A DNA stretch of 64,000 bases from a virus: IMG/VR virus record IMGVR_UViG_3300028173_000007, positions 1 to 64,000 of that record; one strand, written 5' to 3'. Each line of letters starts with the position of its first letter. Positions within the stretch are counted from its first letter, which is position 1. The notes under the pieces were generated by a model. It was not told the DNA's origin, did not search any database, and saw only the letters and a program-made list of their open reading frames with translations. A program made the translations under genes and the position numbers. Below, one piece after another: positions 959 to 34,758 of the stretch.

Positions 959-3900
959 ATGACGGCCCGTGACCTGCTCCGCTCGGCCCGCGAGGCCCTC
1001 TCCGCGGCCGAGTGGCTCCCCGTGCCCGCCCGTGTCGGTGCGGCCCTCTGGCGGCGCCAGTCGGCGACGCTGGCCAAGGGCGCCGGGCACAAGTACGTCC
1101 GCCGCGAGCGGAACCCGAACCCCCCGCCCAAATGGCGCTACTACTACCGGGCGGCCAGCGCGGCCCGCGGCCTCCGCGCCGAGCTCTACGCGGGCGAGAA
1201 GTTCCAGATCGACCACGACGGCCAGGCGGGGCACTTCGAGGTGGTGGAGCTCAGCGGCGACCGGGTGACGGTGCGGCACGACGAGTCCGGCGAGCTCGTC
1301 ACGGTGACGCGGGCGGCCCTCGAAGCCATGTTCCGAGACCACCACGCGGAGGCCATCGACGCGCACCGCGGCCGGCTCTCGCGGGACCTCACCGCGGCGA
1401 AGAAGCACGGCGCCAGTCGGCGCCAGGTGGCCCGGCTCGAAGATGAGGCCCGCCGCCACGGCCACGAAGACCTCGTGAAGCCGAAGCAACGGACCCGAAG
1501 CCCCGAGGGCATCCCGCGCACCGAGGCGCCGGATCTCCTGCTCGTCGGGTGCGTCAAGACGAAGGCGGCGCACGACGAACGGGTGCCCGTGCGCGACCTG
1601 TACCGCTCCCGCACATGGAACCGCCGGCGGGACTACGCCGAAGCCCGCGAGCTCGTCGAGGGCCCCCCCTGGGCGGTCGTGTCGGCCGGCCTGGGCGTGG
1701 TGGACCCTGACCGGCAAACGAAGCGGTACGACGCCCAGGTGAAAGACCTCAAGGGGCCAGCGCGGGCGAAGTGGCTCAAGCGCGTGCGCGGCGCCTTGAT
1801 CGGGAAGCTCTACCGAGGGGAACGGCCCGACACGCCCCGGCGCATCGAGATCATCGCCGGCGCCGACTATGTGAAGGCCGTTCGGGAGGCCCTCGAAGGG
1901 CTCCCCGTCGAGGTGGTGCAGCCCCTCGAAGGCGTGGGGCTCACGCACCAAGAACAGTGGCTCCAGGCCCAGGCCCAGGAGCTCAAGGCGCAACATGAGA
2001 CGTTGGCAGAGCAGGCCAACCGGGAGTCGCCAGGCCGGCCCGAGTGGCACGGCCGCCTATCGCACCTGGGCCTATCGTGGGCCGATTGGGAGGTGCGCCA
2101 CGACTCCGCGGCCGACGCCGTGCGGCGCATCCTGCACCTGCGCCAGAGCTCCGACGGCTGGCACTTCGAGGCGGCCGCCGCGAAGGCCCTCGGTGAGACG
2201 CTCACCGACTACGCCGGCTATCCGGTCGAAATGGAGGACGAAGACGGCGAGTCGTGGCTTGAGGTCGAGCCCGAAGAACTCCCGTCGTGGTTCGGCCGGC
2301 CCGACTGGACGCCCGAGTTTGCCGCGAAGGTCTACCGGCGCGTGGTCGAGCACATCGACGACTGGACGCCCGACGAGGACGACCACCCCGACGGCGTGCC
2401 CGAGTGGGCCGAGGGCTTTCTTCACGAGGTCATGGCCGACGAGCTCGAAACGCCGCCCGACGGCCTGCGCTTGTCGATGGTGTCGAAGGACGAAGCCCGC
2501 CGGTTCATCACGAAGCATCATTCCGCCATGCCGAAGTGGAACCATCGCGGGGTGGTTTTCACCCTGGGCGTGCGTGACCCGCGGGGGCGGCTCGTCGCCG
2601 TAGCCACCGCGAACACCCCGACGGCGCGCGCCTGGCGAGACCACCCGCGCGAACTCGACACGGGGCGCATCCTGCCCGGCCACAACGTGTTGGAGCTCAC
2701 CCGCGTTGCCAGCGACGGCAGCGCGAAGGGCGCCGCGTCCATGCTGGCCCGGCGCGTGGTCGCCCTCGGTGAGAAGGCGAAGCGCGGCGACCCGACCGCC
2801 CCCCACCTCGTGATCACCTATCAACTGGCCAGCGAGAACGGCACCACCTACCGGGCCCTCCGCGACGTGGGCCTGCGCCCCGTCGAGCTCACGAAGGGGC
2901 GCAAGGGCGCCCGCAGGGCCGGCGGCCAGGTCGACGAGAACGACGCGGCGAAGCTCCCGAAACTGCGGTGGGAGGCCGGCCCGGCGGCCATGCCGGCCCG
3001 CTGGGACCTGCTCAACGCCATGAACGCGCGGCGTGAGCACCCCGAGCAACTGGCGACCCTGTTTGCGGCCGAGCGGGCAAACGTCGCCCTCGACGACTAC
3101 TTCGCCAGCGGCTCGAACCACGAAGGCGAGATCCGAGGCTTCCACCGCCTCGGGATCAACCCCGGCGTTGCCGCCGACCGGCTCAATGACCGCAACGTCC
3201 ACGAGCTCAAGCAACTTGCGGGGACCGGCCGCAAGGTCTTCGTGGACTCTGGCGCCTTCGGTGAAATCGACTTCAATGTCCCGAAGAAGGGGCAGAAGGG
3301 CCCGCCGCGGCCGGACCTGCCCATCGGGGCGCCGTTCGTGGTGAAGCCGATCACAGACGACGAGTGGCAAAAGCGGCTGGGCCGCTATCACGAGCTCGCC
3401 CAGGTCCTCGGCGGGCAAATGTACGCCGTCGCGCCCGACAAGGTGGCGCACCAGTCGGAGACCCTCGAACGGCTGGCCAGGTACGCGCCCCAGGTGCGCG
3501 AGATCGCCAAGCTCGGCGCGCACGTCATGGTGCCGATGCAGAAGGGCCAACTAGCCATGCCGGACTTCGCCCAGGTGGCCGCGAAGCGCCTCGGGATGAA
3601 GCCGGACGCCCTCATCTGGGCAATCCCCATGAAAAAGGACGCGACCACCCTCGACGAGCTCGAAGACTTTGTGCGCGAGGCGAAGCCCGGCCGCGTTCAC
3701 CTGCTCGGGGTGGGGCCCGACTCGAAGGCCTACCCGGCGATCCGCGCCATGTTCGACCGGGTGGCCCCCGGCACGGCGCTCACCCTCGACAGCGTGAAGA
3801 TCACCGCGGCCGTGGGTCGCGACGGCACCACGCCGGACGGCAAGCCCAAGGCCCGCGCGCTCACCGCCGCGCAAGACAGGGTGCGGGAGGCTATCGAGGC

Positions 3901-4339
3901 CTCCGCGTTCCGCGCAGACGACCCCGAGCTCCCCGACTACACCGACCACGCCGCCGAGCCGAGCGAGTGGACGACGGAGGCCAGCCGCCGGCGGCTGTGG
4001 GCTACCTGGCGCGGGCGGGACGTGGCCCGGCTCACGAAGACGATCCGAGACCTGCGCGCCGAGCACGGCGCCAGAAAGCCCGTGCCCGAGCCGCTGGCCC
4101 GAGCGAGGGCCGAGCTCAAGACCCTACGCGCCGACGCGAAGCTGTGGCGAGACGACCCCGACGAGTGGATGCAGGCCCCGATCCCCGGCGCAGACCACCT
4201 GAGCAACTACGAGGACCCGTCCGTCGCGACTGACCTTGAGGACACCTGGCGCGACTGGTTCGTAGGCGCCGGCTCGGTGGCCGTCCGAAAGGAGCGCGCC
4301 ATCGTAGAGGCGTTTGGCGAAGTGGGCCGGAAACGGTAG
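959..4339 (+). CDS. KGAGHKY-tagged polyvalent protein 1: tag + DUF6884-like + Mom/XF1762-like GNAT + TGT/DpdA-like domain (1126 aa)
   Basis: LAK|GAGHKY at K40 (nt 1076). LLVGCVKTK..VRDLYRS..VSAGLG..YD (DUF6884-like). EARRFITKHH..LELTRVA..ASML..VITY..ENGTTYRA (Mom-like). VFVDSGAF..APDKV..VHLLGVG..LDS (TGT-fold-like). Motifs recognised by eye. Confidence 0.8.
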   Translation: MTARDLLRSAREALSAAEWLPVPARVGAALWRRQSATLAKGAGHKYVRRERNPNPPPKWRYYYRAASAARGLRAELYAGEKFQIDHDGQAGHFEVVELSGDRVTVRHDESGELVTVTRAALEAMFRDHHAEAIDAHRGRLSRDLTAAKKHGASRRQVARLEDEARRHGHEDLVKPKQRTRSPEGIPRTEAPDLLLVGCVKTKAAHDERVPVRDLYRSRTWNRRRDYAEARELVEGPPWAVVSAGLGVVDPDRQTKRYDAQVKDLKGPARAKWLKRVRGALIGKLYRGERPDTPRRIEIIAGADYVKAVREALEGLPVEVVQPLEGVGLTHQEQWLQAQAQELKAQHETLAEQANRESPGRPEWHGRLSHLGLSWADWEVRHDSAADAVRRILHLRQSSDGWHFEAAAAKALGETLTDYAGYPVEMEDEDGESWLEVEPEELPSWFGRPDWTPEFAAKVYRRVVEHIDDWTPDEDDHPDGVPEWAEGFLHEVMADELETPPDGLRLSMVSKDEARRFITKHHSAMPKWNHRGVVFTLGVRDPRGRLVAVATANTPTARAWRDHPRELDTGRILPGHNVLELTRVASDGSAKGAASMLARRVVALGEKAKRGDPTAPHLVITYQLASENGTTYRALRDVGLRPVELTKGRKGARRAGGQVDENDAAKLPKLRWEAGPAAMPARWDLLNAMNARREHPEQLATLFAAERANVALDDYFASGSNHEGEIRGFHRLGINPGVAADRLNDRNVHELKQLAGTGRKVFVDSGAFGEIDFNVPKKGQKGPPRPDLPIGAPFVVKPITDDEWQKRLGRYHELAQVLGGQMYAVAPDKVAHQSETLERLARYAPQVREIAKLGAHVMVPMQKGQLAMPDFAQVAAKRLGMKPDALIWAIPMKKDATTLDELEDFVREAKPGRVHLLGVGPDSKAYPAIRAMFDRVAPGTALTLDSVKITAAVGRDGTTPDGKPKARALTAAQDRVREAIEASAFRADDPELPDYTDHAAEPSEWTTEASRRRLWATWRGRDVARLTKTIRDLRAEHGARKPVPEPLARARAELKTLRADAKLWRDDPDEWMQAPIPGADHLSNYEDPSVATDLEDTWRDWFVGAGSVAVRKERAIVEAFGEVGRKR

Positions 4340-4360
4340 GGTGCAGGTCCCCAACCGGAC

Positions 4361-4408
4361 GCCGGGGACGGGGCCGCACTCGGGTCGTGTCGCGGTCCCG
4401 CCCCCGGT
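4361..4408 (+). terminator. GC-rich hairpin after the polyvalent protein 1 gene (possible terminator, no U-tract)
   Basis: GCCGGGGACGGGGCCGC (4361-4377) pairs with GCGGTCCCGCCCCCGGT (4392-4408), 16 of 17 pairs including G-U. Confidence 0.5.
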
Positions 4409-4415
4409 GCCCATC

Positions 4416-4424
4416 TGATAGGAT
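4416..4424 (+). promoter_or_regulatory. Extended -10-like element TGATAGGAT
   Basis: Fits TGnTAnnnT in an intergenic gap, upstream of GGAGGA RBS and ATG 4443. Related motifs at 16922, 22530 and 62695. Confidence 0.55.
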
Positions 4425-4442
4425 GCGGCCACCGGAGGACCT

Positions 4443-5354
4443 ATGCGGCCGCTACCCCTCGACCATCCCGTGCGTGTGACCGAGGACGCGACGCCCGACG
4501 CCCGCGGCATCTTTCCAGGCCTCGGCGACGGCGGCCCGCCTCCCGTTCCGTTGTCGACCGTCCTCTCCCCGCTACGGGGAAGCGACCGGGCCGGCGCGAG
4601 GGCCGCCCTTGAGGCCCCGACGCGCGAAACCCTGGCCGACCTCCGCGGCGCCTACCGAGACGCCGGCCTGGCCGGGCCCAAGCTCGCCGCGGCCATGCAA
4701 TCGGCCGCGCGCTACATCGCCCACATGCGCCGGCGCAACCCACGGGGGCGCACCGAGCCCGATCACCTGCGGAAAGCGGCCTACTACGCCGGCGCGGAGG
4801 CCCTCGCGGCCAAGGTGGCGCGGGAGGTGGAGATCCCCGGCTTCATCGGCCGAGTCGTGTGGATGGCCCAGGCGCGCGACCTCCGCAAAGGGGCCGGCCA
4901 CAAGTACCTTCGCCGCGTGAAGGGGGCGAACGGGAAATGGCGGTACTTCTACAAGGTGAGCGGCGGCCGCGGCCTCGGGCACGCTGACGAGTTCCACGTC
5001 GGCGCGAAGTTCGCCGGCGGCGGCGGTCACTTCGAGATCGTGAGCGAGTCCGGCGACATCGTGGAGATCCGCCACGACGAGACGGGGGGGACGCGCAGGC
5101 TGGACAAGGCGGCCCTCTCCGAGCTCCTGCGAAAGCACCACGTCGAAATCGACACCGAGGGTTTCAGCTACTACGTTGGGCGCCTCGGGCCAGCCGACGC
5201 CTATCCAGGCACGGCCGGCGCCGCCGCGGCGGCGCGCTTCCACGGGCTCGACTATCACGAGCATGGAGCGCCCGACGTGCATCCACGACGGCGCGGCCGC
5301 GGGCAGGTGGCCGCGGCTGACGGACTACTGGCCAAGGCCAAGGGGGCAGCATGA
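4443..5354 (+). CDS. KGAGHKY-tagged protein 2 (long leader + tag module, little cargo; 303 aa)
   Basis: GGAGGA RBS; LRK|AAYY, LRK|GAGHKYLRRVKGANGKWRYFY..GHFEIV..IRHDETG; ends LLAK|AKGAA. Confidence 0.8.
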   Translation: MRPLPLDHPVRVTEDATPDARGIFPGLGDGGPPPVPLSTVLSPLRGSDRAGARAALEAPTRETLADLRGAYRDAGLAGPKLAAAMQSAARYIAHMRRRNPRGRTEPDHLRKAAYYAGAEALAAKVAREVEIPGFIGRVVWMAQARDLRKGAGHKYLRRVKGANGKWRYFYKVSGGRGLGHADEFHVGAKFAGGGGHFEIVSESGDIVEIRHDETGGTRRLDKAALSELLRKHHVEIDTEGFSYYVGRLGPADAYPGTAGAAAAARFHGLDYHEHGAPDVHPRRRGRGQVAAADGLLAKAKGAA

Positions 5355-8300
5355 GCACGGACCTGATCACGCGAGCCGCGGCCCTCCTGGGGCGCGTGCG
5401 CGGCCACCTCGACGAGATCCCCGAGGCCGCCGGCGTGCTCCTGTGGGCCCGCCAGTCGGGCGAGCTCGTGAAGGGCGCCGGCCACAAGTACGTCCGGCGG
5501 GTGAAGGGCGCGAACGGGAAATGGCGGTACTTCTACGACGTGACGGGGGGCCACGGTGCCGCGCACCACGCAGAGATCCACCTCGGCGCGAAGTTCAAGG
5601 TTGAGCACGAGGGCAAGGCCGGCCACTACGAGGTGACGAAGGAAGACGGCGGGTGGGTGACCATCCGGCACGACGAGACGGGACACGAGGCCAAGGTCAA
5701 GAAGACCACCGTTCAAACCATGATCAAGCGCCAGCACGCGGAGCTATTCGCGGCGCACCGCGAGCGCACCGCGCGAGACGTGAAGGCGGCGAAGAAGTAC
5801 GGCGCCAGCGCGAAGCAGAAAGCCCGCCTGGCGGCGCACGCGAAGAAGTACGGGCACCACGACCTCGCCAACGAACTCACCGACACGGCCGCGCCCGATC
5901 ACGCCGGCGAATACGGGCGTCACGCGGAGCGAGCTCGCCACCACCACGACGAGGCCAGCAAGGCCACGCCCGGCACCCCCGAGCACAAGAAGCACCGCGC
6001 GGCCAGCCTGGCCCACGAGAAGGCGCGCGAGGCGCATAGCCGAGCCATCGGTGACACCGAGGCCTCCGCGGGCGCCTTCGAGGCCTCGAAGGCCGCGGAC
6101 GCACTCACAGTCGAGCACCCCGAAGTCCACGCGGCCCGCCGAGCCCTCGAAGCACACGAGCGGAAACGTCAACAGGTCTCCGACCGCATGTACCGGCGAA
6201 CGAAGGCGGGCAGCGTCTCCACCGGCGCCCGTGCCGCCTACGACCTCAAGATGGGGCAGCTAGTCGAGCAGGAAGGCCACCTCCGCGCGGCCCTCGCCGC
6301 GGCCGAGGACAAGGCCAAGCGCGGGCCCGACGGCGAGCTCACCACCGACGAGCTCGCCCAGCGCCGCGCCGCGGCCGAGGCCTCGGCGCTCAAGCGCCGG
6401 GGGACCGGGAAGCCCGACGAGCCCGACAACGTGGTGCAGTTCCCGAAGCCCGAGCCGAAGCCCGAGCCCGAGTCGACCCGACCCGACCCGGCCCTACTCG
6501 CCCCGCTGGCCGACAAACTCGTCTCGCAACTGCTCCCCGGCATGAAGGGGCACGCGAAGCGCGCCGAGCTCCTGGCCATCGCCGCCGAGCACCTGGCGAA
6601 CATGGTCGGGCAAGAGCCCTCCGAGGAAACGGCGCAGGCCCTCGCGGCCGCCCTCACGACGAAGGCGCGCGAGCTCTCCGCGTCCAACGTGGTGCGCCTG
6701 GGCGGCCTGGGCGGCCGGAAGACGAAGCAGGAGAAGGCCGAAGCCTGGATGCGAGACGCGGCGGCGAAGCAGCGCGCAGGCCTGCGAGACGGCAAGCCGG
6801 GGCACCGCATCCACTACACCGGCGACCGGGCCAACAGCCCGCGCAACGGCGAGGTGATCGCCGCGTTCCCCGGTCACTACCGGGTGAAGTGGGACGACGG
6901 CACCGAAGGCAACGTCGAGCGGATCGGGGTGCGGGGCTGGGATAACGCCGGCGCCCGCTTCCATTGGGAGGACGAGAACCCGAGCGGCGACAGGAGCCCC
7001 GAGGCTATCGAGGAAGGCAAGCGGCAAGCGGTGGCCCACCGGGAGGCCGCCGACAAGGTGGCAGCGGCAGAGAAGGCCGAGCAGGACCGGAAGCACGCGG
7101 GGTGGCACAAGCCCGCCGACCGCACCGAGGCGTCCAAGCGGCTCAAGGCCGCGTTGCAGAAGCTCTACCCCGACGGCCAGTGGAGCGTGACCGGGGGGAA
7201 GGGGACCGGCTACGGGTGGCTCAGCATCAACGGCACCTCTGAGGCCGAGGGGAAGCTGCGCGACGAGCACCGCATTATCACGAGTGTTTCCAGCGGCAGT
7301 CGTGATTCCACCGTGCGGGACCTCGAAGAAGCGTCGGGGATCTTCACCCCCGGCGAGGGCCTCGCGCCGGGCAGCGTGGCCAGGAAGCACGCCGACAAGG
7401 CCGCAGCCGAGGCCGCAAGGCGCGAGGGCGCCGGCACCACGCGCCACGTCGGCCAGGTGGTCACCATCGGATCCAACCGCCGGCGCTACGTCGTGGTGAG
7501 CTCCGAGCAGGTGGGGTCCAGCCCGCCCCGCTACAACTTGTCCGCCCTCTCGGGCGGGATGCGGGGCTCGGGGCCGTCCTCGGTGTCCGCCGACGACCTC
7601 ATCCCCCACGCCGACCAGCGGATCACCTTCGACGGGGCCCAGGCGGCCGACCGCCGGGCCCGCGCGCTCCGCTCGCTGGCGCTCAACAGCAACGCCGACC
7701 CCGACACAAAGCAGCGGGTCCGGCTGGCGGCGAGCTCGGGGGGCGCGGTCCTCTCCCCGGCCGAGCTCGCCCAGCGCAAGGCCGCCGCCGACGCCGCGGC
7801 CCTCAAGCGCACGAAGGCGCCCGAGGTCCCCCCGGTGAAGCCCCCGGTGAAGCCCCCGGTGAAGCCCCCGGTGAAGCCCCCGCAAAGCGACTCGGGCCGG
7901 TCGGACGCTGACAAGCCCTCTCCCCAACCGGCGGCCCAGCGTCCGGCCGGCTTTTCTGCCCCCGTCGCTTTCACCGGCGAGACCCGCGAGAGCGTGACGA
8001 AGAAGCGCGGAAACACCGTCTGGAGCGTGCCCCACGCGGGGAGCATCCCCGACGCGCAGTTCACGGCCATGAAGGACGCCGCGCGGGAGCAGAAGGGCTA
8101 TTACCTGCGCGGCCAGGGCTTCACGTTCCGCGACCCCGAACACGCCCGGCAATTCGTCGCGGCCTGGGGCGCCGGTGACGGTGCGGTCCCGACGACGACG
8201 CCCGACGCGGACGGGAAGCGCCGCGCCAGGGCAGATCGGGCGAAGAAGCGAACGAAACCCGACGGCTTCGACGCGGCCGAGGGCGCCGGCGAGGGCTGGC

Positions 8301-10903: not shown

Positions 10904-11508
10904 AGGACATTCGCGCCATCCATCGCCACGCCGACCCGATGAAACACGCCGAGGATCTCATCCAAGAGCACAACGCCGCCGCCCACGCGGCGGCCGACGA
11001 GCGGGCCGCCGCCGAGCCGGCGAGGATTCGAGCGCGTGACGCGGCGTGGCGGGCCGAAGCCGCCAGGTCGTCGCGAGCCGAGGCCAAGGCGATCATCGCC
11101 CACGCCGACCGGGTGACCCCCGCCGCCCTCCGAGGAATTGCCCGCCGCGCTGCGGCTATGTCGCCCCAGGCAAGAGACAAGGCGCACGCGGCGAACATGG
11201 CCCACGCCCGAAACATGCTCGCGATGGGCGAGCGTGCCGGCGAGGTCCCCGCGAACGCCGCGGAGCGCGCGATGGCGACATATGCCCACGCTTCGCGGTT
11301 CGGGGGCCTTGAACTGGCGACGGCGGTGGCGGCCCTGCCCTCGCTTCGGGCCCTTGCGGCTCACAAAAACGACCCAACGATCATGCCGCTACGGTTCGAC
11401 CTGGCAAACGCGCGCAACGGGCAGCACACCGGCGACGGGTGGGAGGCGTTCGCCCCCGAGCACGTTCACATCGAAGCCGCGCCTCGCCGCGCTCGGGGTG
11501 CGGCGTGA
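10900..11508 (+). CDS. Ala/Arg-rich hypothetical protein
   Basis: ATG 10900 overlaps TGA 10901-10903 (ATGA coupling); same frame as ORF 10870..11508. Confidence 0.65.
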   Translation: MKDIRAIHRHADPMKHAEDLIQEHNAAAHAAADERAAAEPARIRARDAAWRAEAARSSRAEAKAIIAHADRVTPAALRGIARRAAAMSPQARDKAHAANMAHARNMLAMGERAGEVPANAAERAMATYAHASRFGGLELATAVAALPSLRALAAHKNDPTIMPLRFDLANARNGQHTGDGWEAFAPEHVHIEAAPRRARGAA

Positions 11509-24800: not shown

Positions 24801-27800
24801 GGACCCCGATGGACCCGTTCGACACCCGAAGCCTTCGGTTCACCCGCCCCCTCCCGGTCGAGCTCACAAAGGGCATGGAGCCCGGCGATGAGTTCGTCCC
24901 GGTCTCGAAGTACCTCGGCGTGCTCCTGTGGGTCGGCCAGTCGGGCGAGCTCGTGAAGGGCGCCGGGCACAAGTACCTTCGGCGGGTGCCGGACGGGCGC
25001 GGCGGCTGGCGCTACTTCTACAACGTGGCCGGCGGCGGCGGCCTCGGCCACCACGACGAAATGCAGGCCGGCGCGAAGTTCAAGCTCGCGCACAACGGCC
25101 AGGCGGGGCACTTCGAGGTCCACGAGGATCACGGGGATCGCGTCACCATCCGGCACGACGAGAGCGGCCACGAGACGCGCGTCTCGAAGAAGGCGCTCCG
25201 CGCCATGCTCCACAAAGAGCACGCCCAGGCCGTCACGGCGCACACCGCGAAGGTCAAAGAGGATCTCGCCGCGGTGGCGAAGCACGGGACGGCGGGGCAG
25301 AAGAAGCGGCTACAGGCCCGCGCGGACAAGTACGGCCACACCCGGCACCTGCTCCGCGAGCAGGAGAAGCACGGGAAGACCGCCGAGGGTCACACCCGCA
25401 GCGGGCGGGAGATCCCCCACGTCGACTCCCACGGCGACGAGCGCGACGAGGCGACCGAGGATTGGGGCCAGGAGGACCACGACGACGCCGCGCGCCACCA
25501 CGCCGCGGCTGCGCGCGGCGCCGGCGCCGGCGCCGCCCACGTCAAGGCCGCCCACCTGGCCGCCGCCGCCCACCACCGCGAGGCCGCGTCCACGGTCCCG
25601 ATCAAGAAGCTCGACGAAGACGAGCGGGACCTTGCGCTCGACGTGATCGGCCGGCTGCGCCGCGAGATCGGGAAGCTCAAGAGCGGGCTCGAAGCCGGCG
25701 CGAAGGAAGAACAGCGGTTCGGCGGGCACTCGGTGTTCCGCACTCACCACGGGATGCACTCGTTCACGGCGCCCACCGGGGCCGACAAGGGCAAGATCGC
25801 GGAGGCCTGGATCACGTCGCACCTTGAGCGCGTCGGGCACGAGGCCATGAAGGAGGCCGCCGACAAGCACTATGGCGGCGAGAACGAAGACGCCCCCCAC
25901 GAGCACGGCATCCCCGAGAACGTACTTCGCGCCGTCCGCGCCACGCTGCGCCCCGAGGTGGTGAGCGCCTGGAGCATGGGCGGTATCAAGCTCATGGACG
26001 ACGGCCAGGCGCAGAAGAAGGCCGCAGCGGCGGCCAGCGCCACCGGGAAGCAGGCCGTGGCCGACAAGGCCAAGCGCGCCGAGGCGAAGAAGGCCCGCGC
26101 GGCCGAGAAGAAGGCCGCCCGCGCCGAGAAGGCGCGCGCCGAGGCGAAGCCCGAGGACGACCCGAAGCGGGGCCCCGACGGCGAGCTCACCGAGAAGGAG
26201 AAGGAACAGCGCCGCGAGAACGCGCGGCGCCGCAAGGGGACCGGGAAGCCCGACGAGCCGAAGAAGGGCCGCGCCCCGGCCTTCGACAATGAGACCTGGG
26301 CGAAGAAGTACGGGAAGCACGCGGAGAACGTCGAGGTCGTCGGCGGGCACATGACCGTATGGCAGATGGGCCAGAGCGGGAGCATGGGCACCCGCGGAAA
26401 CTGGTACGTCACCGCGCCCAACGGGAAGAACGTCGGCCGGGCGGCCAGCGCGGAGAAGGCGCGGGAGGTGGCCGAGCAGAAGGCCGCTCAGCACAAGCCG
26501 CTCGGCGCTGGCGAGGTGCTGGACGAGATCCGCAAGCGCGGGGGCCACGGCATCGCGGACGGGATGCACGCGGACGCGAAGGAACGCACCGAGGGCCACT
26601 ACACCGCCACGACGCACACCGGGAAGAAGATCCCCAAGGGCGGCCCAGGCGAGCACACCGAGGGCTGGAGCTCCGCGGAGCACTCCAGCGCGGCGGCCTG
26701 GCACAAGAAGCAGGAGGACGCCAAGCGAGCGGACCCGCGTTCAAGCCTCGAAGACGCGAACCACCACGGCCGCATGGCCGAAGCGCACCTCGGGGCCTAC
26801 ACGGCGATCCACGAGGGGCGGACGAAGGCGCGGAAGGCGAAGGACTTGGCCGCGCTCAAGGCCGACCCGAAGGCGAGGTTCCACGACGCCCTTGCGTCGA
26901 CCGGGTACGGCCCCGGCGGCCGGGGCTATGAGGCCGTGCGGGACTACATCGGCCTCGCCAACAGCCCCGAGGAAGCGGGCACCCTGGCGGCCGCCCTCGA
27001 CTACTCGGGAGAGGCGGGCGCGCGTAGCTTCGAGGCCCTGGCGGCCCGAGCTCTCAAGGTGTCCCCGGCCGAGCTCGTGACGCGCAAGCGCGCCCACGCA
27101 GCGGCCGGCGCGGCCGCCGGCGGCGCCAAGGGCGACGAGCCGAAGCGGGTCGGCGGGGAGCTCACCGAGAAGGAGAAGGAGCAGCGGCGGGAGAACGCGC
27201 GCCGGCGGCGCAAGTTCACCCCCATCGACCCGAAGAAGGCCGCAGTCCCCGAGCACCTCCGCGCGGGGACTGCGGCGCAGGTGGGCGAGAACATCGCGGC
27301 GAACGCCAAGCTCGCCAGCACCGACGACGAGCGACAGAACGTCCGCGATCACGTCTCGCGGCTACTCGCCGCGGGGACGATCACGTCCGAAGCCGGGGAG
27401 CGGGCGTACCTGGCCGCTGGGCTGACGAAGGACGGCGGATTCAAGGCGGCCGAGCCCGCCCCCAAGGCCGAGCCCGCCCCCAAGGGGCGGGAGGCCCGCC
27501 AGGCCGAACACAAGCGCCGAGGCGGCGAGGCGGCGACCGCTCACCAGGCGGTCGCCGACCACCAGAGCGCGTGGATCAAAGAGCAGGGCGGGTCCGCCAA
27601 GTTGCGCGAGCGCGGCATCCGGCGCATGGACCAGATCCCGGTGCCGGACGAGCTCAAGATGAAGCGCCAGAAGGCGCGGGATGCCGTTGCGGCGCACCAC
27701 CACGAGAACGGCGGCGCGGGCGGCTTCACGGCCGCGGCGATCAACGACGCGACCGCCTTTATCAAGCGCAGCGAGGCCAGCGGCGGCAACTTCGAGGTGC

Positions 27801-30800
27801 TCAAGTGGGCCCGCGCGGTGTTGTCGCAGATCAAGGCGGCCGGCCCCAACGCCGTGCGCGACACCCCCCCGCACCCCGGCAAGGGGAGCGCCACCGCGAC
27901 CGCAGAGAAGTTCCTCGCCCGGCTGCGCGACCAGAACAGCCATTGGGGCGGAGACGACCGCAACGACGTGGGCGATGCCATCGTGAAGGAGGGCCGAAAC
28001 AAGCGGACGGGGGCCGCGGAGCACGTCGTCAACTTCACGACCCGCCGCGGCCGCGAGGACCACCAGCGGCTCGGGGCCATCGCGACCGGCTTCGGCGGCC
28101 AGATGGTGCGGCGCAAGGGCTTCGTGTTCGCCACGCCTGAGAAGGCGCGCGCCTTCGCGGAGGCGCACGCCATCCACCACGGCACGGGCTCGCCCTACAG
28201 CGCCAGCAAGGCGGCCCAGGAGCCCGAGGGCGGCAAGCGGGGGCCCGGCGGTGAGCTCACCCCCGACGAGCTCGCCCAGCGCCGGGAGAACGCCGCGAAG
28301 CGCAAGGGGACGGGAAAGCCCGACGACGCGCCCAAGGCGAAGCCGAAGAAGGCCGACGAGCCCAAGGCGAAGCACCACCACGACGGTTGGCCCGAGGACC
28401 AGTACCAGCGCGCGCAGGCCTTCCGGCGCGCGCTCTATGAGGGCCCGATCAAGCTCGGGAACGGCGGCCAGGTGGAGACCACCGACACGGGAGTCAAGGT
28501 CACGCACCCCGACGGGCGTGAACACGAGATGCGCGTCCCCAGGATCGACCGCGACAACACGGCGATTGAGGCCGCGGAGAACGGCGGGCCCGTGATCGCG
28601 GCGCCCCTGGGCAGGATGGAGGGCTACACCGCGAAGGCCGACGGCCTCCCGGTGGGGGGCCGCGCTCACATCGCGTACAACAAGGGCCAGGACGCCCTCG
28701 CCAAGCTCCACGCGCACGCCAGCGCACGGGCCCGCGGTGAGAAGGTGGACGCCGGCGAGCTCCACGACGCGGCCGAGGCCGTCACGCGACACGCCCAGGC
28801 CGTCGAGGCGGCCCACACCCGCCGCGGGAAGCCGCGGGACGCGGCCCTGCGGAAGCGCGGAAGTCTGATCGCGCAGCGAGACGCCGTGCTCTCCAGCGCC
28901 CAGGATGCCGTCGCGTTCCACGGCCAAGGCAAGCCCGACCCCGAGGCCTTCCACGCCTGGGCCAAGGACAAGAGCCCCGAGAAGCTCGTAGACCTGGCCG
29001 CGAAGGTCACCGGGGAGGGCGGGCACCCCGCCGCAACTGAGCTCGCCTTCGGCAAGGTGCCGGCGCACGACATCGTGCGCGCCGCGATGGACAGCATCGG
29101 CAAGACCGGCTCTCGTGCCCGAAGCATCCCCGCCACCATGCGGCGCGCGGTCCATGCCCTCGGCCACCTGGCGGGGGAGCACCGCGGACACGAGAGCATG
29201 GCCCTCGGCGCGGCCTGGACCGACCTTCCCGACGCGGTGTTGGAGGGGATCAAGACCCGAGGCCGCACCGCAGACGGCAAAGACTGGCACCCCAACGGCC
29301 AGCGGAAGCGCGCCGCGGAGAACGCCGTCGGTGAGCTCCGCGCCCGCGACAACGCCGCCCAGCGGCTCGGCGTGCCCCGTGTCGAGGTTCAGCCGAAGGT
29401 GGGGGTCAACGGCACCGAGCTCAGTCACTTGGCGGCGGGCATGAGCGACCTTCGCAAGCGGGCCAGCGCCGGCGACAAGCACGCGGAGGGCGAGATCAAG
29501 ATGCGCGGCATGGCCGCCGATCTCCTGGGCCACGGGAAGCACGTCCTCGACTCCCTGCACGACCACGGCGGCGTGCATGAGGTGTTCGGCGGCGACCACG
29601 AACACATCAAAGCGCCGGACGGGAGCACCTACCGCCGGAACACGGGCCACGCCGGCGAGACGACGTGGAAGAAGGTCGGCGCGGACGGCACGACCGGCGA
29701 GTCGTGGAACCGCGGGGCGAGCCGCGCGGCTCTCGAAAAGCAGCACGGCACCGACGGGTGGGGCGACGCCAACGAGACGAAAGAGCAGGCCCACGGCCGG
29801 CTACTGGCCGACCTGAGCACGCAAGCCGGGCAGACGAGGCGGACGCCTGGGCGAAAGGAGCTCAGCGGGTACGACAAGACGGGGATCGCGATCCGCCAGC
29901 ACCTCGAAGGCTCGAAGCTCATCGAGCACGACGAGCACGGCCCCGTGTCGCTCGGCCAGGTGGCCGAGGTCATGGACCGGCACCAGAACGTCGCGGAGGC
30001 CGGCTCGAAGCGCGACAACATCCCCTCGCCCAACTGGCCGGCGAAGCTCTCCGACGAGCGCCTGGGCGAGATCGTGAAGCACCGCAACGAGCCCGGTCTA
30101 CACGACCGCTTCCACCGGGAGCAGACCGCGCGCGCCGATCACGAGCTCCACCAGGGCGACCACGGCGATCACGAGGCGGCGAAGTCCGGTAACGGCTGGA
30201 CGGTCAAGAAGGGCGGAAAGCACACCGGGATCAAGGCCGACACGAAGGGCGAAGCCCTGCACGCGGCCGGGATGCTCCACCGAGGGGACTCGGGCGAGGA
30301 CGTAGAGCACGCCCTCGCCACGGGCACGGCGAAGCGCGCGGTGGGCGTCTACAAGGAACGCCGGCGCCAGGCCGCCGCGGGGGCCGACGCGGCCAGCCTG
30401 CACGCCATGACGCAGGCGACGGCGCCCGCCGCCGGTGAGTTCAACGTCGAGGCGAAGCCGCACACGACCCGAGCGAAGGCGGCCGCCCGCATGGCGAAGT
30501 TCGCCAGCACCGAGGATGATCGCGTCAACTTGCAGAGCTACCATGTGAAGGATGGGCACGCCACCGCGACGGACGGGCACCGCCTGGCCAGTATCCCCGT
30601 GAAGGGTGACCACGAGGACGGGGCGACCTACCGAGCTCACGGCGACGCGGTGCCGAAGCACATCGAGGGCGACGCCGAGAAGGTGGCCGCGTGGCACAAG
30701 GGCTGGGGCCGAGGCTCGCAGAGCGACGTGAACTTCCCCGACTACACGCAGGTCACGCCCAAGGGGCACCCCCACGTCGATCACGTCGATGCGAAGCACC

Positions 30801-31141
30801 TCACGACCGCACTTCGGATGCTCAAGCCGCACATGGACGGGAAGGTCCCCCACATGCGCCTTGAACGGAAGGACGGGAAGCTCTACGCCACCGCCGACGT
30901 GGGCCACGCGGTAGACGGCGGCGTGGCACGCATCCACCTGGGCGACACCTCGCACCCTGACGGGCAGGTGGGCATCAATCACAAGTACCTCTCCGACGCG
31001 ACGCAGGGCGCAAAGGGCACGGTCCAGATCAAGACCGGGAGCATGAAGCCCCGAGCCGACGACAGCGACCACGGCCTCGCGCCGATGGCCGTACACCGCG
31101 AGGACGGCGAGAAGCACATCATCATGCCGCTGCGCGTGTGA
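24797..31141 (+). CDS. KGAGHKY-tagged giant polyvalent protein 7 (2114 aa) with C-terminal DnaN beta-clamp-like domain (start may be ATG 24809)
   Basis: LTK|G and LVK|GAGHKYLRR..WRYFY; C-terminus ATDGHRLA..FPDY..V..P..GINHKYL.D..IIMPLRV. Confidence 0.85.
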   Translation: MRTPMDPFDTRSLRFTRPLPVELTKGMEPGDEFVPVSKYLGVLLWVGQSGELVKGAGHKYLRRVPDGRGGWRYFYNVAGGGGLGHHDEMQAGAKFKLAHNGQAGHFEVHEDHGDRVTIRHDESGHETRVSKKALRAMLHKEHAQAVTAHTAKVKEDLAAVAKHGTAGQKKRLQARADKYGHTRHLLREQEKHGKTAEGHTRSGREIPHVDSHGDERDEATEDWGQEDHDDAARHHAAAARGAGAGAAHVKAAHLAAAAHHREAASTVPIKKLDEDERDLALDVIGRLRREIGKLKSGLEAGAKEEQRFGGHSVFRTHHGMHSFTAPTGADKGKIAEAWITSHLERVGHEAMKEAADKHYGGENEDAPHEHGIPENVLRAVRATLRPEVVSAWSMGGIKLMDDGQAQKKAAAAASATGKQAVADKAKRAEAKKARAAEKKAARAEKARAEAKPEDDPKRGPDGELTEKEKEQRRENARRRKGTGKPDEPKKGRAPAFDNETWAKKYGKHAENVEVVGGHMTVWQMGQSGSMGTRGNWYVTAPNGKNVGRAASAEKAREVAEQKAAQHKPLGAGEVLDEIRKRGGHGIADGMHADAKERTEGHYTATTHTGKKIPKGGPGEHTEGWSSAEHSSAAAWHKKQEDAKRADPRSSLEDANHHGRMAEAHLGAYTAIHEGRTKARKAKDLAALKADPKARFHDALASTGYGPGGRGYEAVRDYIGLANSPEEAGTLAAALDYSGEAGARSFEALAARALKVSPAELVTRKRAHAAAGAAAGGAKGDEPKRVGGELTEKEKEQRRENARRRRKFTPIDPKKAAVPEHLRAGTAAQVGENIAANAKLASTDDERQNVRDHVSRLLAAGTITSEAGERAYLAAGLTKDGGFKAAEPAPKAEPAPKGREARQAEHKRRGGEAATAHQAVADHQSAWIKEQGGSAKLRERGIRRMDQIPVPDELKMKRQKARDAVAAHHHENGGAGGFTAAAINDATAFIKRSEASGGNFEVLKWARAVLSQIKAAGPNAVRDTPPHPGKGSATATAEKFLARLRDQNSHWGGDDRNDVGDAIVKEGRNKRTGAAEHVVNFTTRRGREDHQRLGAIATGFGGQMVRRKGFVFATPEKARAFAEAHAIHHGTGSPYSASKAAQEPEGGKRGPGGELTPDELAQRRENAAKRKGTGKPDDAPKAKPKKADEPKAKHHHDGWPEDQYQRAQAFRRALYEGPIKLGNGGQVETTDTGVKVTHPDGREHEMRVPRIDRDNTAIEAAENGGPVIAAPLGRMEGYTAKADGLPVGGRAHIAYNKGQDALAKLHAHASARARGEKVDAGELHDAAEAVTRHAQAVEAAHTRRGKPRDAALRKRGSLIAQRDAVLSSAQDAVAFHGQGKPDPEAFHAWAKDKSPEKLVDLAAKVTGEGGHPAATELAFGKVPAHDIVRAAMDSIGKTGSRARSIPATMRRAVHALGHLAGEHRGHESMALGAAWTDLPDAVLEGIKTRGRTADGKDWHPNGQRKRAAENAVGELRARDNAAQRLGVPRVEVQPKVGVNGTELSHLAAGMSDLRKRASAGDKHAEGEIKMRGMAADLLGHGKHVLDSLHDHGGVHEVFGGDHEHIKAPDGSTYRRNTGHAGETTWKKVGADGTTGESWNRGASRAALEKQHGTDGWGDANETKEQAHGRLLADLSTQAGQTRRTPGRKELSGYDKTGIAIRQHLEGSKLIEHDEHGPVSLGQVAEVMDRHQNVAEAGSKRDNIPSPNWPAKLSDERLGEIVKHRNEPGLHDRFHREQTARADHELHQGDHGDHEAAKSGNGWTVKKGGKHTGIKADTKGEALHAAGMLHRGDSGEDVEHALATGTAKRAVGVYKERRRQAAAGADAASLHAMTQATAPAAGEFNVEAKPHTTRAKAAARMAKFASTEDDRVNLQSYHVKDGHATATDGHRLASIPVKGDHEDGATYRAHGDAVPKHIEGDAEKVAAWHKGWGRGSQSDVNFPDYTQVTPKGHPHVDHVDAKHLTTALRMLKPHMDGKVPHMRLERKDGKLYATADVGHAVDGGVARIHLGDTSHPDGQVGINHKYLSDATQGAKGTVQIKTGSMKPRADDSDHGLAPMAVHREDGEKHIIMPLRV

Positions 31142-31413
31142 CGGTGGACGAACCGCGTTCAATCCGGTGCGGCTCGTGTGGCCACACCATCGGGGCTCAC
31201 CAGGGCGGCCGGCTCAAGTTGCGCGTGCGTGTCCTGGCGTTCGGGCCGGACGGCGCCGCGAAGGCCCCGTGCCCGCGCTGTAAGCGCGACACGCCGGTTC
31301 CGGTGGAGCTCGCCCCCGAGTACCGGCCGGCAGCCCTCAACCGCCAGTCTCGGGCCGCAGCCGCGCGAGCTCGGGCCGCGGCCAGGTTGACGCACGCGCC
31401 CGAGACGCCTTAG
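31138..31413 (+). CDS. Com-like zinc-ribbon protein
   Basis: SIRCGSCGH..CPRCKR matches the CxxC..CPRCK pattern of phage Mu Com-family proteins; GTGA overlap. Confidence 0.65.
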   Translation: MTVDEPRSIRCGSCGHTIGAHQGGRLKLRVRVLAFGPDGAAKAPCPRCKRDTPVPVELAPEYRPAALNRQSRAAAARARAAARLTHAPETP

Positions 31414-31525: not shown

Positions 31526-32377
31526 GTGACCATGCCAGCCCCCAGCCCCACAACCCGCCTTCACGGGTGGATGCCGTGGGAGGCCTTTTTCAAGGCCGAC
31601 GCGCCCAAGGGCAAGCGGCTACGCATTCGCGGCATCGTGAGCACCGAGCACCGAGACCTACAAGGCGAGGTGGTCGTGCAGGCCGGCCTCGACTGCTCCC
31701 CGATCTCGCAAGGCCGCGGGTGGTTCAACGACAATCACCGCCGCGAGACGGGCCAGGAGCTCGGCATCCCGACGAAGGTGTGGCGAACGAAGGTCAAGGG
31801 CGTACCGGCGACGGCCGTCGAGGGCTACCTGCTCGACACGCCCGAGGGCCGGCGCGTGTGGACGAACGCGCGCGCTCTCGCGGGGACCGGCCGCAACTAC
31901 GGTTTCAGCGTCGAGGGCGCGATCCTCGAACGGGACGTGACCGACCAGAAACGGATCGTCCGCTCGGTTGCCCGGCAGATCGCGATCACCCGTTGCCCGG
32001 TCAACCCGAACACCGAACTTGAACCAATCGCCAAGAGCCTCACGGCGCACATGGAGAAGGCCGTCCGCTTGGGCGCCGCCTTCCCTGGCGCCAGCGGCCA
32101 GCCTGGCCAGATGGGCGCGCTGGTGCCGCAGGACCTCGGCCGTCGGGCCGACGGCCACGACGACGAAGTGCAGTTCTTCGGGGGCCTGGCCTTCGATTGG
32201 GCCGCGTTCGCGCGGTCTCACAGCGCATCGGACGCCCTCAGAAACGGGCGCCGTCGCACACGTCCCCGCCTGGAGAAATCCCAGGCAGTCGCCTATGTCC
32301 GCGCGCGGCTCCCCGGTGCCACCGACGCGCAGATCAGAACCATCCTCGCCGGCGCGTCCGGCGCAACTGGAGCGTGA
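31526..32377 (+). CDS. Prohead (capsid maturation) serine protease
   Basis: IRGIVSTEHRDLQGEVV..WFNDNH..GFSVEG..IAITRCPVNPNT (His/Ser, HK97/herpes-assemblin type); located between portal and capsid. Confidence 0.9.
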   Translation: MTMPAPSPTTRLHGWMPWEAFFKADAPKGKRLRIRGIVSTEHRDLQGEVVVQAGLDCSPISQGRGWFNDNHRRETGQELGIPTKVWRTKVKGVPATAVEGYLLDTPEGRRVWTNARALAGTGRNYGFSVEGAILERDVTDQKRIVRSVARQIAITRCPVNPNTELEPIAKSLTAHMEKAVRLGAAFPGASGQPGQMGALVPQDLGRRADGHDDEVQFFGGLAFDWAAFARSHSASDALRNGRRRTRPRLEKSQAVAYVRARLPGATDAQIRTILAGASGATGA

Positions 32378-32379
32378 AC

Positions 32380-33177
32380 ATGGAGATCCTGCCCTACCTC
32401 AAAAGCATGGCGAAGGGTGGCGACAAGGCCGCGCTGGCGTGCCTCAAGTCGATGGCCGGTGACGGCAACGACGACGCGGCCGATGCGGTCCACGAGCTCG
32501 AAGGCGGCGACGTGGACGGCGGGAACGGCTCGGAGGCCGGCGACGCCCTCAACGGCGAGTTCGGCAAGTCGGAGGACTTCGGCCCCCTGTTCGACCTCGA
32601 CGCCCTCGACAACGAGATCGCGGACGCGGAGCCCTTCGCCAAGTCGGAGGACTACCCCGAGGTGCCCGACGCCCGCGAGATCATCGGCGCCCAGGATGGC
32701 GTCGCGGCCGCGATGGCGATGGACGCCGACGATCTCGTCGAGGGCTTCGTCAAGGGCGTGTCGGAGGCCATCGACCGCCTCGGTGACGCGACCCTGTGGA
32801 ACGGGACCGGCGTGGAGGCGATGGCGAAGTCCGTCACCGCCATTGGCGAGATCCTGCACGCGCAGACCGACGCCCTCGGCGAGCTCCGCAAGGGCATGAC
32901 CGAGCTCCGCGCCACCTTCCTGAGCCGCGGCGCCGGCCTGGCCGGCGTGGACGCGGCGCAGCCCGCGGCCCGCCCCCGTCTGCGCAAGTCGCTGGACGAC
33001 GACGCGCTGGGGGCCCCCAGCGCCGGTGACGACCTGAACACGTTGCGGAAGTCGCTCCGCACCATGCGCGGCGCGACCTCCCGCGACGACACGGCGAAGC
33101 AGGCCATGATCGGCGAGGCCCTCGAAGACCTGACCATCGGCGAGACGGCGCGTGCGCGCGCCCTCGTGGCCGGCTGA
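32380..33177 (+). CDS. Capsid scaffolding protein (265 aa)
   Basis: GGAG RBS and ATG 32380 (the ORF track starts too early); acidic, helical, between protease and capsid; repeated hydrophobic-x-K|S/G sites. Confidence 0.8.
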   Translation: MEILPYLKSMAKGGDKAALACLKSMAGDGNDDAADAVHELEGGDVDGGNGSEAGDALNGEFGKSEDFGPLFDLDALDNEIADAEPFAKSEDYPEVPDAREIIGAQDGVAAAMAMDADDLVEGFVKGVSEAIDRLGDATLWNGTGVEAMAKSVTAIGEILHAQTDALGELRKGMTELRATFLSRGAGLAGVDAAQPAARPRLRKSLDDDALGAPSAGDDLNTLRKSLRTMRGATSRDDTAKQAMIGEALEDLTIGETARARALVAG

Positions 33178-33252
33178 CACACAACCTGCGCGGCGCGTAG
33201 GGCCGCACTCGGACCACCGGGCGCCTGGCGCTCTCAGATTGGAGAAACCATC

Positions 33253-34758
33253 GTGGAAATTGCGGACATTTTCGGCGGACAGGCCGAGGTCACCGGCGCC
33301 GGCGTCGCGGCGGCGCTCGGGAAGGGCTCGGTGGGCGAGCTCCTCAAGTCGATGAGCGTCGGGGCGACGTTCCCGGCCCAGATCGGGGACCTCAACCCCG
33401 GTCAACTGATGGCGACGGTCCCCCAGGACCTCGACGACGTGCTCCACAACATGAGCTTCGACCCGCGGAAGCACACCTTCCTGTTCCGCGAGACCCACCA
33501 CGACAAGGTGTGGAGCACGGTTCACCAGTACGTCCGCAAGCAGTCGCAGGGCTCGCTCGGCCGTCGGTTCATGTTCCACCAGGAGGGCGGCCTGCCGCCC
33601 GAGTCGGACAGCACCTACACGCTGGAGCAGGTCGCGATGAAGTTCGCCGGCTCCGTCCGGCGGCTCCCGATCCAGGCGCGGCTCGTGAAGTCCATCGCGG
33701 GTAACACCGTGAAGGCCCAGAACAAGGACGGGGCCGAAGAAATCCTCGCCGGCATCGAGTGGGCGATGCTCTACGGCAACCCGACCGTGAACCCGATGAC
33801 CTTCGAGGGGATCAAGCAGTCGATGATCCGCGAGGGGATCAGCCTCGACGCCGGCGGCATCGCGCCCACCGAGGCGCTCATCGATGAGGGCATGGAGCGG
33901 ATCACCGAGCGGCCCAACTGGGGCTACCCGACCGACATCCTGTGCAGCCCCCGGATGCACAAGACGATCCGGCAGGTCTACGCGCCCCGAATGCGCTCCA
34001 TGCTCGGCAAGGCCTTTCACCCCAACTACAGCTTGAAGGGCATGACCTTCGATCACTGTGCCGAGGGTGACGAGGTGCGGATTCGGAAGCACCCGCTCGC
34101 CATCGAAGAAGCCCCCGTGTGCGACGAGCTCGGGGCCGGCCCCGACCCGAGCAAGCGCCCCGTGCTCCCCATCGTGATCAGCCAGCCCACGCCGGCCAAC
34201 GACGCGGACAGCCTGTACGGCAACGGCCAGGCGGCGCGCGCCGGCGGCGTGGTCAAGTACCGCGCCGTGGCCATCAACGAGTACGGGATGAGCGTCCCCC
34301 TGACCCTCAACGACGCCAACATCGGCGCCGGCCAGTCCGCGCCCTTCACGATCAAGGATGGCGCCGTCCCCGGCGCGCTGAACCGGGCGACCGGCTTCAT
34401 CATCTACCGCACCGAGCCGGGCCTGCTCGCGCCCACCGCCACGCAGATCGACGAGATCAGCGCGGCCAGCGGCGCGAACGTGACCTACACCGACCGCGCC
34501 GAGAACCTGCCGGGGTGCTCCGACCTGTTCCTCCTGAGCAACAACCGCGAGGCCTTGTGCTGGAAGCAGTTGCTCCCCTTCTTCAACTTCCCGCTGGGGA
34601 ACCTCGACACGTCCTACCGCTGGGCGCTGCTCCTGTTCGGGGCCCTCAAGATCGCGTTGCCCCGGCACCACGCCGTGATCCGCAACGTGAAGCCCGACCT
34701 CGCGCTGCGCCAGGTCTTCGGGCCCGGCGATCAGAGCTCGGCCCAGGCCAACCTGTAG
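33253..34758 (+). CDS. Major capsid protein (SPO1/Twort/A511-like)
   Basis: LLK|SMSVG N-terminal processing-like site; STVHQY..EGGLP..DSTY..MKF..IEWAMLYGN..FEGI; YRAVAINEYGMS insertion. Confidence 0.9.
   Translation: MEIADIFGGQAEVTGAGVAAALGKGSVGELLKSMSVGATFPAQIGDLNPGQLMATVPQDLDDVLHNMSFDPRKHTFLFRETHHDKVWSTVHQYVRKQSQGSLGRRFMFHQEGGLPPESDSTYTLEQVAMKFAGSVRRLPIQARLVKSIAGNTVKAQNKDGAEEILAGIEWAMLYGNPTVNPMTFEGIKQSMIREGISLDAGGIAPTEALIDEGMERITERPNWGYPTDILCSPRMHKTIRQVYAPRMRSMLGKAFHPNYSLKGMTFDHCAEGDEVRIRKHPLAIEEAPVCDELGAGPDPSKRPVLPIVISQPTPANDADSLYGNGQAARAGGVVKYRAVAINEYGMSVPLTLNDANIGAGQSAPFTIKDGAVPGALNRATGFIIYRTEPGLLAPTATQIDEISAASGANVTYTDRAENLPGCSDLFLLSNNREALCWKQLLPFFNFPLGNLDTSYRWALLLFGALKIALPRHHAVIRNVKPDLALRQVFGPGDQSSAQANL

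Follow-up and report, generated by a model that had tools for sequence, protein, structure and literature searches.

We analysed the first 64,000 nucleotides (hereafter the window) of IMG/VR virus record IMGVR_UViG_3300028173_000007, an uncultured virus whose source record spans 89.6 kilobases (kb), has a guanine-plus-cytosine (GC) content of 71% and is estimated to be 63% complete. Nearly all called window genes lie on the + strand, and they include a head region with genes for a portal, a MuF-like protein, a giant protein, a prohead protease, a scaffold and a major capsid protein. Our subject is a short Lys motif that recurs in the products of these genes and in a set of large putative cargo proteins sharing an N-terminal domain, here called the tag. 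The protease gene sits between the portal gene and the scaffold and capsid genes, an order that relatives share, and the stretch 5' of the portal holds five large genes together with one for a 303-residue protein and one with an InPase domain. Gene starts are approximate, with ATG 24809 and ATG 31532 as possible alternatives, and sites are hence given by codon coordinates. The head region from the portal to the capsid gene reads as follows.

20728-22575, + strand: portal (Pfam Phage_portal, phrog_12)
23484-24800, + strand: MuF-like minor head protein (weak match to Pfam Phage_Mu_F, E 3e-5; MuF domain at residues 282-400)
24797-31141, + strand: giant tagged polyvalent protein of 2114 residues (no family match; tag profile E 2e-75)
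31138-31413: small zinc-ribbon protein (weak zinc-ribbon matches)
31526-32377, + strand: prohead serine protease of 283 residues (phrog_1028 head maturation protease, E 9e-28)
32380-33177, + strand: scaffold protein of 265 residues (no family match, in Pfam and PHROGs alike)
33253-34758, + strand: major capsid protein of 501 residues (phrog_752, E 2e-49)

The motif is defined as a hydrophobic residue (L/I/V/M/F/Y/W/C) at -2, any residue, Lys, and then S/G/A, that is, positions P3, P2, P1 and P1' of a candidate cleavage site, with an arrow marking the predicted cut. We scored each of the 76 genes of the 89.6-kb record, ungrouped beforehand, against 1000 residue shuffles of itself, and found that the five most enriched were those of the scaffold, the protease, gene 4443-5354, MuF and the capsid protein, all of which are head genes. 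Their counts are given below with the candidate sites, followed by the sites of the portal.

Scaffold: 10 sites observed, 1.06 expected, p <= 0.001; after K8, K12, K23, K63, K88, K125, K150, K171, K203 and K224
Protease: 4 observed, 0.75 expected, p 0.006; candidate self-cleavage sites after K23 (31592-31594), K170 (32033-32035), K178 (32057-32059) and K251 (32276-32278)
Gene 4443-5354: 4 observed, 1.06 expected, p 0.025
MuF: 3 observed, 0.77 expected, p 0.036; after K47, K93 and K423, flanking the MuF domain
Capsid protein: 4 observed, 1.64 expected, p 0.064; predicted maturation site LLK↓S after K32 (33346-33348)
Portal: candidate trimming sites near both ends, after K36 (20833-20835) and K590 (22495-22497)

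The tail and other genes at 35118-63580 hold 9 sites against about 13.5 expected from their composition, which is background. Motif Lys account for 24 of the 77 Lys in the five head-assembly proteins, compared with 9 of 157 in the tail and other genes (Fisher p 5e-7), and the difference persists when the scaffold is excluded (14 of 65, p 0.001). The original prediction had proposed that tail proteins would show only background frequency, and this is borne out both here and in the relatives described below. Its reading of single sites proved equally accurate: of the 12 scaffold Lys, 11 precede S/G/A, and 10 of these meet the hydrophobic requirement at -2 as well, and every site that it had named is present, in the capsid protein (LGK↓G24, LLK↓S32), portal (MSK↓A36, LAK↓S590), protease (FFK↓A23, IAK↓S170, MEK↓A178, LEK↓S251), MuF (LHK↓A47, LQK↓S93, LEK↓S423) and the tag junctions (LAK↓G, LRK↓G, LVK↓G three times, LMK↓G, LRK↓S).

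The enrichment concerns Lys and not Arg. Arg is twice as common as Lys in the head-assembly proteins and occurs in the equivalent context in 7 of 168 cases, compared with 24 of 77 for Lys (p 2e-8), a specificity that argues against an artefact of composition or helix periodicity. Such a by-product would arise if amphipathic helices of scaffold-like proteins placed a basic residue two positions behind a hydrophobic and before a small one, with no role in proteolysis; in its favour are the helical nature of scaffolds, their abundance of Ala, Ser and Leu, and the use of a short motif that was chosen once the scaffold had been seen. We nevertheless consider it very improbable: shuffles that keep the composition yield about one site per scaffold; Arg, the commoner basic residue at 71% GC, stands in the motif context in 1 of its 14 scaffold occurrences, against 10 of 12 for Lys; the protease, which is no helical scaffold, is enriched at conserved disordered positions; and the capsid site lies at the maturation place of A511-type capsid proteins, discussed below.

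The same pattern recurs in 12 related uncultured phage records, namely a 94.9-kb relative and eleven further ones. Capsid homologues at 57-61% identity led to seven IMG/VR loci that share the window gene order; a single capsid sequence found nothing in genome or viral contigs, and an alignment of homologues was needed as query. In the 94.9-kb relative (96% complete), the top three of 82 genes are those of the scaffold (8 sites against 1.05 expected), MuF (5 against 0.88, p 0.002) and the protease (4 against 0.96), and in six more distant tag-bearing records the gene 3' of the protease carries 5-15 sites against 0.5-1.9 expected, with 4-7 in the protease. The scaffolds from the seven IMG/VR loci are 37-44% identical to the window scaffold and have 7-9 sites each; certain positions are kept among them (MAK↓GG, PFAK↓S/G, ALAK↓S/A/G, L[RQ]K↓SL), and the other sites move by a few residues with the motif retained. 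Across all scaffold homologues, the number of sites ranges from 5 to 15, and pooling 12 scaffolds gives 111 motif sites among 189 scored Lys, with mostly Leu at P3, a free P2, and S (61), A (41) and G (27) at P1'.

We also observe the motif in cultured phages. Among cultured phages, the capsid protein comes closest to those of SPO1-group Bacillus phages (27% identity), followed by Thermus phages and other Herelleviridae; it is 27% identical to SPO1 gp6.1, and by this alignment is a distant SPO1/Herelleviridae-type homologue. The SPO1 gene order is that of the window head region, and its scaffold carries 11 hydrophobic-x-K↓S sites against 1.4 expected, its protease 8 against 1.9, its capsid protein LNK↓A23 and its portal two N-terminal sites, with neighbouring neck and tail genes at background; three scaffold sites align between the window and SPO1 in a weak alignment. 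In a phage K-like Kayvirus both the protease (7 sites against 1.8) and the scaffold (7 against 1.5) follow suit, and in an A511-like Listeria phage the protease is enriched (5 against 1.4) and the scaffold is not (3 against 1.61, p 0.21). The capsid N-termini of the two read EDVVK↓SFQTGYG (K-like, K24↓S25) and EDALK↓SFTTGYG (A511-like, K23↓S24). The A511 Cps protein was reportedly found by Loessner and Scherer in 1995 to be cut between Lys23 and Ser24, and we take the EDALK↓S position of the A511-like phage to be the place of that cut. The connection to A511-type capsid precursors drawn in the original prediction thus holds at the sequence level, with the invariant K32 of the window capsid protein at the equivalent N-terminal place. 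On these comparisons, the motif is older than the window phage group. Head maturation in SPO1, A511 and K resembles that suggested for the window phage in its gene order, in the identity of the SPO1 capsid protein (27%) and protease (37%) to those of the window, in motif enrichment in all three proteases and in a capsid site about 23-32 residues in; it differs in that the window phage has 71% GC, a MuF gene and a giant cargo gene between portal and protease, and six or seven tagged cargo proteins. Literature searches returned no paper that states a Lys motif for the proteases of Herelleviridae (scaffold-wide), HK97 or T5, which is not proof that none exists.

Conservation singles out particular sites. 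In the capsid protein, L30 and K32 stay unchanged across 10 homologues, the most distant at 37% identity, P1' being S or A, and neither LGK↓G24 nor LVK↓S146 is conserved among relatives. The portal site YNK↓A319, conserved within the portal fold, is probably structural. All four protease sites are retained in 5 of 5 closer homologues, and K23 and K178 are invariant across 11 protease homologues, as are, down to 33% identity, H71 (NDNH) and S128 (GFSVEG), the putative catalytic His and Ser. The window protease aligns with SPO1 gp3.2 (37% identity over 166 residues, E 1e-18) such that FFK↓A falls on ILK↓S and IAK↓S on VVK↓S, and SPO1 gp3.2 itself scores 23.7 bits against Pfam Peptidase_S78 (PF04586), above the cut-off of 21. 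An AlphaFold2 (AF2) model of the protease has a predicted local distance difference test score (pLDDT) of 69.5 overall and of 74-91 in blocks within residues 21-150, and it suggests that residues 159-212 form a 54-residue disordered linker after the catalytic domain, holding K170 and K178. PDB sequence searches with the protease and with its profile returned nothing useful.

It is conceivable that another enzyme cuts these sites, either a Lys-specific protease of the host or a peptidase lying within the cargo proteins, the latter in line with the embedded zincin-like peptidases that have been proposed for polyvalent proteins (Iyer et al. 2017, PMC5512222). We give this idea very little credence, since Pfam (E <= 0.01) detects no peptidase family in the cargo proteins, since the motif marks the classical substrates of a prohead protease (scaffold, capsid N-terminus and the protease itself) and since it tracks one protease family from SPO1 to window-type phages. 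Large parts of the cargo proteins have no Pfam match of any kind. For the scaffold, the protease and the capsid protein, the motif is very probably the site of the window protease.

Turning to the cargo, an N-terminal module is common to six window proteins, whose genes start at 959, 4443, 5351, 12447, 16929 and 24797. It consists of a leader with a hydrophobic helix, the sequence L-x-K-G-A-G-H-K-Y, a WRYxY hairpin, a small barrel and helices. These proteins and a seventh with a variant leader are listed below with their sites.

959-4339, + strand: tagged cargo protein of 1126 residues, DUF6884; LAK↓G after K40 (1076-1078); tag to about 1480, profile E 4e-65
4443-5354, + strand: tag-only protein of 303 residues; tag profile E 9e-57 over residues 105-273; LRK↓A after K111 (4773-4775) and LRK↓G after K149 (4887-4889), bracketing a 38-residue leader segment
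5351-10903, + strand: tagged cargo protein of 1850 residues; LVK↓G after K41 (5471-5473)
12447-14954, + strand: tagged cargo protein of 835 residues with a C5 DNA methylase domain; LMK↓G after K40 (12564-12566)
14962-16644, + strand: variant-leader protein of 560 residues; FRK↓A after K13 and LRK↓S after K22 (15025-15027), then GGRYVYRVKKGKGWHYVY
16929-19727, + strand: tagged cargo protein of 932 residues; LVK↓G after K38 (17040-17042); tag profile E 1e-43
24797-31141, + strand: giant protein (see above); LTK↓G (24869-24871) and LVK↓G (24956-24958), bracketing a 29-residue leader

Motif Lys are concentrated in the leaders (10 of 13) and are at background in the cargo bodies (21 of 443), and the idea that the bodies are enriched or diced internally at the motif is rejected, as they lie at or below background. 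The claim that all cargo proteins are marked therefore comes down to a single feature of a paralogous module. In an AF2 model of the 5351-10903 tag (pLDDT 79), the segment from K41 to H45, which joins a leader helix (residues 25-37) to a beta hairpin, is modelled as a loop of low confidence (pLDDT below 50). For the giant protein we used the start at GTG 24797, and ATG 24809 has the better ribosome-binding site; its body holds 4 sites, with a composition estimate of about 9.5 for the whole protein.

Several further features of this region were recorded. The product of 4443-5354 consists essentially of a 149-residue leader and a tag domain with no enzyme block, and the predicted cut at K149 would free a tag domain of about 154 residues, possibly an adaptor or core component. 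Membership of 14962-16644 in the tag family is unsupported, as the tag profile gives no match and the assignment rests on resemblance. Within the giant protein, 26156-28333 encodes three very basic repeats of about 30 residues (GELTEKEKEQRRENARRR...), which a self-BLASTP did not report; they were rejected as cut sites, having no hydrophobic P3 and no hydrophobic-x-K-[SGA] site. The InPase-domain protein (19724-20725; PF18823, residues 160-282) carries no tag and has a motif site, LAK↓A after K141, shortly N-terminal to the domain. The 1.5 kb between the genes for the 1850-residue and 835-residue cargo proteins contain a 212-residue Ala-rich open reading frame (ORF) at 10870-11508 with a third-codon-position GC content (GC3) of 0.81, overlapping the end of the 1850-residue gene in a different frame, and a short ORF at 11738-12016 with a hydrophobic segment and a coiled-coil-like stretch. 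Lys usage splits by gene class between 959-31141 and 35118-63580, with 4-8% in the cargo and 0-3% in most tail genes, two of which have none.

We next considered the tag domain at large. A profile built from 15 tags and searched against 1.84 billion cluster representatives (E <= 1e-3) retrieved 718 representatives, with up to four copies per protein; the junction statistics refer to the best 150 of these 718, which comprise 198 domains. In these 150 diverse proteins the junction Lys is present in 188 of 191 tag copies, with L/V/I/M/F at P3 in nearly all, a free P2, and G (128), A (56) and S (3) at P1'. The motif is matched by 186 of the 198 domains, and at least three of the exceptions (P0015, P0092, P0143) have a conforming site 1-8 residues upstream. 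Furthermore, in the 60 residues before the tags, leaving out the junction itself, 154 of 369 Lys stand in the motif, compared with 627 of 9650 in the bodies (odds ratio 10, p 1e-76, for sites that are partly homologous and so not independent). These extra sites precede 70 of 92 internal tags, often in clusters of two or three, against 26 of 83 N-terminal tags, which is what the linkers of a polyprotein would look like. Within the folded tag domain the motif is rarer (70 of 2467 Lys, 2.8%) than in the bodies (6.5%), which may reflect avoidance of cutting or just the composition of the domain. Homologues of the window protease are found in 9 of 10 tag-bearing viral records, the tenth being 61% complete. 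The modelled tag barrel resembles Tudor, SH3 and KOW folds at a middling score (Z 6.6), a likeness that we take as that of a common small fold and not as an indication of function. The tag is absent from Pfam and PHROGs. In some relatives (L003, at 1-7751, and L014), a very long open frame runs over the end of the MuF gene and holds the tag 280-530 residues in, so that another block precedes the tagged unit in the same protein.

These junctions could be explained without cutting. The head sites would then be cleaved as proposed, and the Lys-Gly of the tag would be structural or functional, for instance in forming a turn ahead of the HKY hairpin or in contacting nucleic acid, leaving the cargo at full length. 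The position of the junction inside a conserved block (LW..Q..L.K-GAGHKY) and the Lys being more invariant than most scaffold sites fit this account, but the free P2 and hydrophobic P3 are those of the scaffold sites, and at least three of the exceptions have a conforming site a few residues upstream. Similarly, the preference of P1' for Gly over Ser and a Tudor/SH3-like barrel (Z 6.6), from fold classes that often bind nucleic acid, speak for a structural Lys, and they are to be set against the further sites that bracket leaders, mainly at internal tags, the low-confidence loop that the model places at the junction, and the variant leader of 14962-16644, which retains LRK↓S despite the loss of GAGHKY. 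We regard this as the main rival and as unlikely, and hold that the balance leans towards cutting of the tag junctions.

Several results count against assigning all of these sites to the phage's own protease. The motif definition was read off the scaffold, which makes the scaffold count circular by itself, and the motif was therefore tested on other genes and other phages. The portal as a whole is not significantly enriched (3 sites against 1.8 expected), and while each of the 3 homologues compared has one site near each end, the columns do not align; MuF site positions are likewise only loosely conserved and do not align between homologues. The window protease scores 15.1 bits against PF04586 (E 0.026), below the cut-off that SPO1 gp3.2 passes, and its model matches T4 gp21 best (5jbl; E 1.5e-3, probability score 0.99), followed by herpesvirus assemblins, all of them weak matches with E > 1e-3. 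As regards the cargo, the window tag sites are paralogous copies of one feature and not seven independent events, the P1' preference at the junction (G > A >> S) differs from that of the scaffold (S > A > G), the junction lies within a continuously conserved domain in which the Lys could be structural or functional, and none of the GenBank phages searched has the tag.

From the observed motif enrichment, Lys specificity, conservation and co-occurrence with the protease, we infer that the sites are cut, that the window protease cuts them and that the cargo lies inside the head. The best overall explanation, which we consider likely, is that the motif represents the specificity of the phage's own prohead protease, acting on the head proteins and on the cargo leaders; this interpretation has support where the head proteins are concerned and is plausible as regards the cargo. 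Under this explanation, a prohead serine protease of HK97/SPO1 type with a putative assemblin fold would cut after [L/I/V/M/F]-x-Lys before Ser, Gly or Ala. Inside the prohead, the scaffold would be diced at about ten sites into pieces able to leave, the capsid protein would lose its first 32 residues (K32↓S33), the protease would remove its own N-terminal peptide and C-terminal tail, and the ends of the portal and MuF would probably be trimmed. The cargo would be cut just before the shared, unnamed domain of about 130 residues (GxGHKY hairpin, Tudor/SH3-like barrel and helices) that heads six cargo proteins, with the mature cargo beginning GAGHKY, and in relatives with fused cargo these cuts would split the fusion into its units, each of which, once released, would start with a tag domain. 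Removal of the cargo leaders, which we still infer, has gained support because of the junction Lys in 188 of 191 copies, the low-confidence loop, the upstream site clusters and the co-occurrence with the protease in 9 of 10 records. The original prediction had seen in the motif independent support for encapsidation of the cargo; the support is indirect, and it does not amount to an independent showing of packaging. It is plausible that the tag or the leader loads the cargo into the head.

A more tentative extension, to which we give somewhat less than an even chance, is that these elements constitute a modular cut-and-load system. An enzyme block placed behind a tag would be loaded alone or within a polyprotein of up to four tags, the linker clusters would be cut to leave separate effectors in the head, and the GxGHKY domain would hold each effector on the DNA or the inner head until injection. 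Phage polyvalent proteins would then have a delivery route that is undescribed and, with about 700 sequence clusters, widespread.

Comparison with other known systems places these observations in context. The protease gp4 of HK97, a phage with encapsidation mediated by the protease tail, belongs to Peptidase S78, the Pfam family that the SPO1 homologue of the window protease matches; a C-terminal tail after a site-bearing disordered linker is a further likeness, and HK97 gp5 is cut after Lys103. HK97 differs in that it lacks a separate scaffold and is not known to have cargo proteins. The proteases gp21 of T4, with L/I-x-Glu sites and the capsid-targeting sequence of IPI-III and Alt, and gp245 of phiKZ, 201phi2-1 and SPN3US, with A-x-Glu sites, are known systems for comparison, and in SPN3US/phiKZ a single A-x-E motif marks the capsid, portal, protease and ejected proteins, with long propeptides cut multiply (PMC10052503). 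In the T4 and phiKZ systems, as proposed for the window phage, a single protease motif marks the scaffold or core proteins, the capsid, the portal, the protease itself and the proteins that are ejected, and N-terminal propeptides are removed; an assemblin-type fold may be a further likeness. In the six tagged proteins and the one variant the leader ends in the predicted protease consensus site, as in the T4 capsid-targeting sequence. The T4 and phiKZ systems differ in that P1 is Glu in theirs and Lys in the window phage, whose protease groups with SPO1 gp3.2/S78 in another clan branch, and in that the window-type tag recurs inside polyproteins; in addition, T4 removes a short peptide, whereas in the window phage a domain of about 130 residues would stay after loss of a leader of about 30-40 residues. 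Judged by its P1 Lys throughout, the window system would work like that of T4 and is no member of it, and it is most likely a T4/phiKZ-type protease-processed head cargo system, here Lys-specific.

Polyvalent proteins were predicted to be packaged and injected, with release by embedded peptidases (Iyer, Burroughs, Anand, de Souza & Aravind 2017, PMC5512222). The window proteins resemble them as multi-domain proteins of 835-2114 residues encoded beside portal and MuF genes, with C5 methylase, DUF6884 and neighbouring InPase (PF18823) domains, and differ in that the linkers of the window family carry a prohead protease motif, that MuF is a separate gene and that the tag lies outside Pfam and PHROGs. 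Processing by a prohead protease at tag-linked sites is not described in PMC5512222. Tryptic proteomics is blind to the proposed cuts because trypsin also cleaves after Lys, a possible reason for the lack of earlier remarks on the scaffold-wide pattern.

Provided that the sites are cut, the motif would read out which proteins pass through the prohead and would predict their mature ends and the splitting of the giant proteins, the enzymes concerned including, among others, a DNA methylase and a DUF6884 protein. It would also provide a concrete specificity for the prohead proteases of SPO1, K and A511 type, testable in cultured phages, and an unnamed domain family of 718 representative clusters would mark probable injected proteins in uncultured phages.

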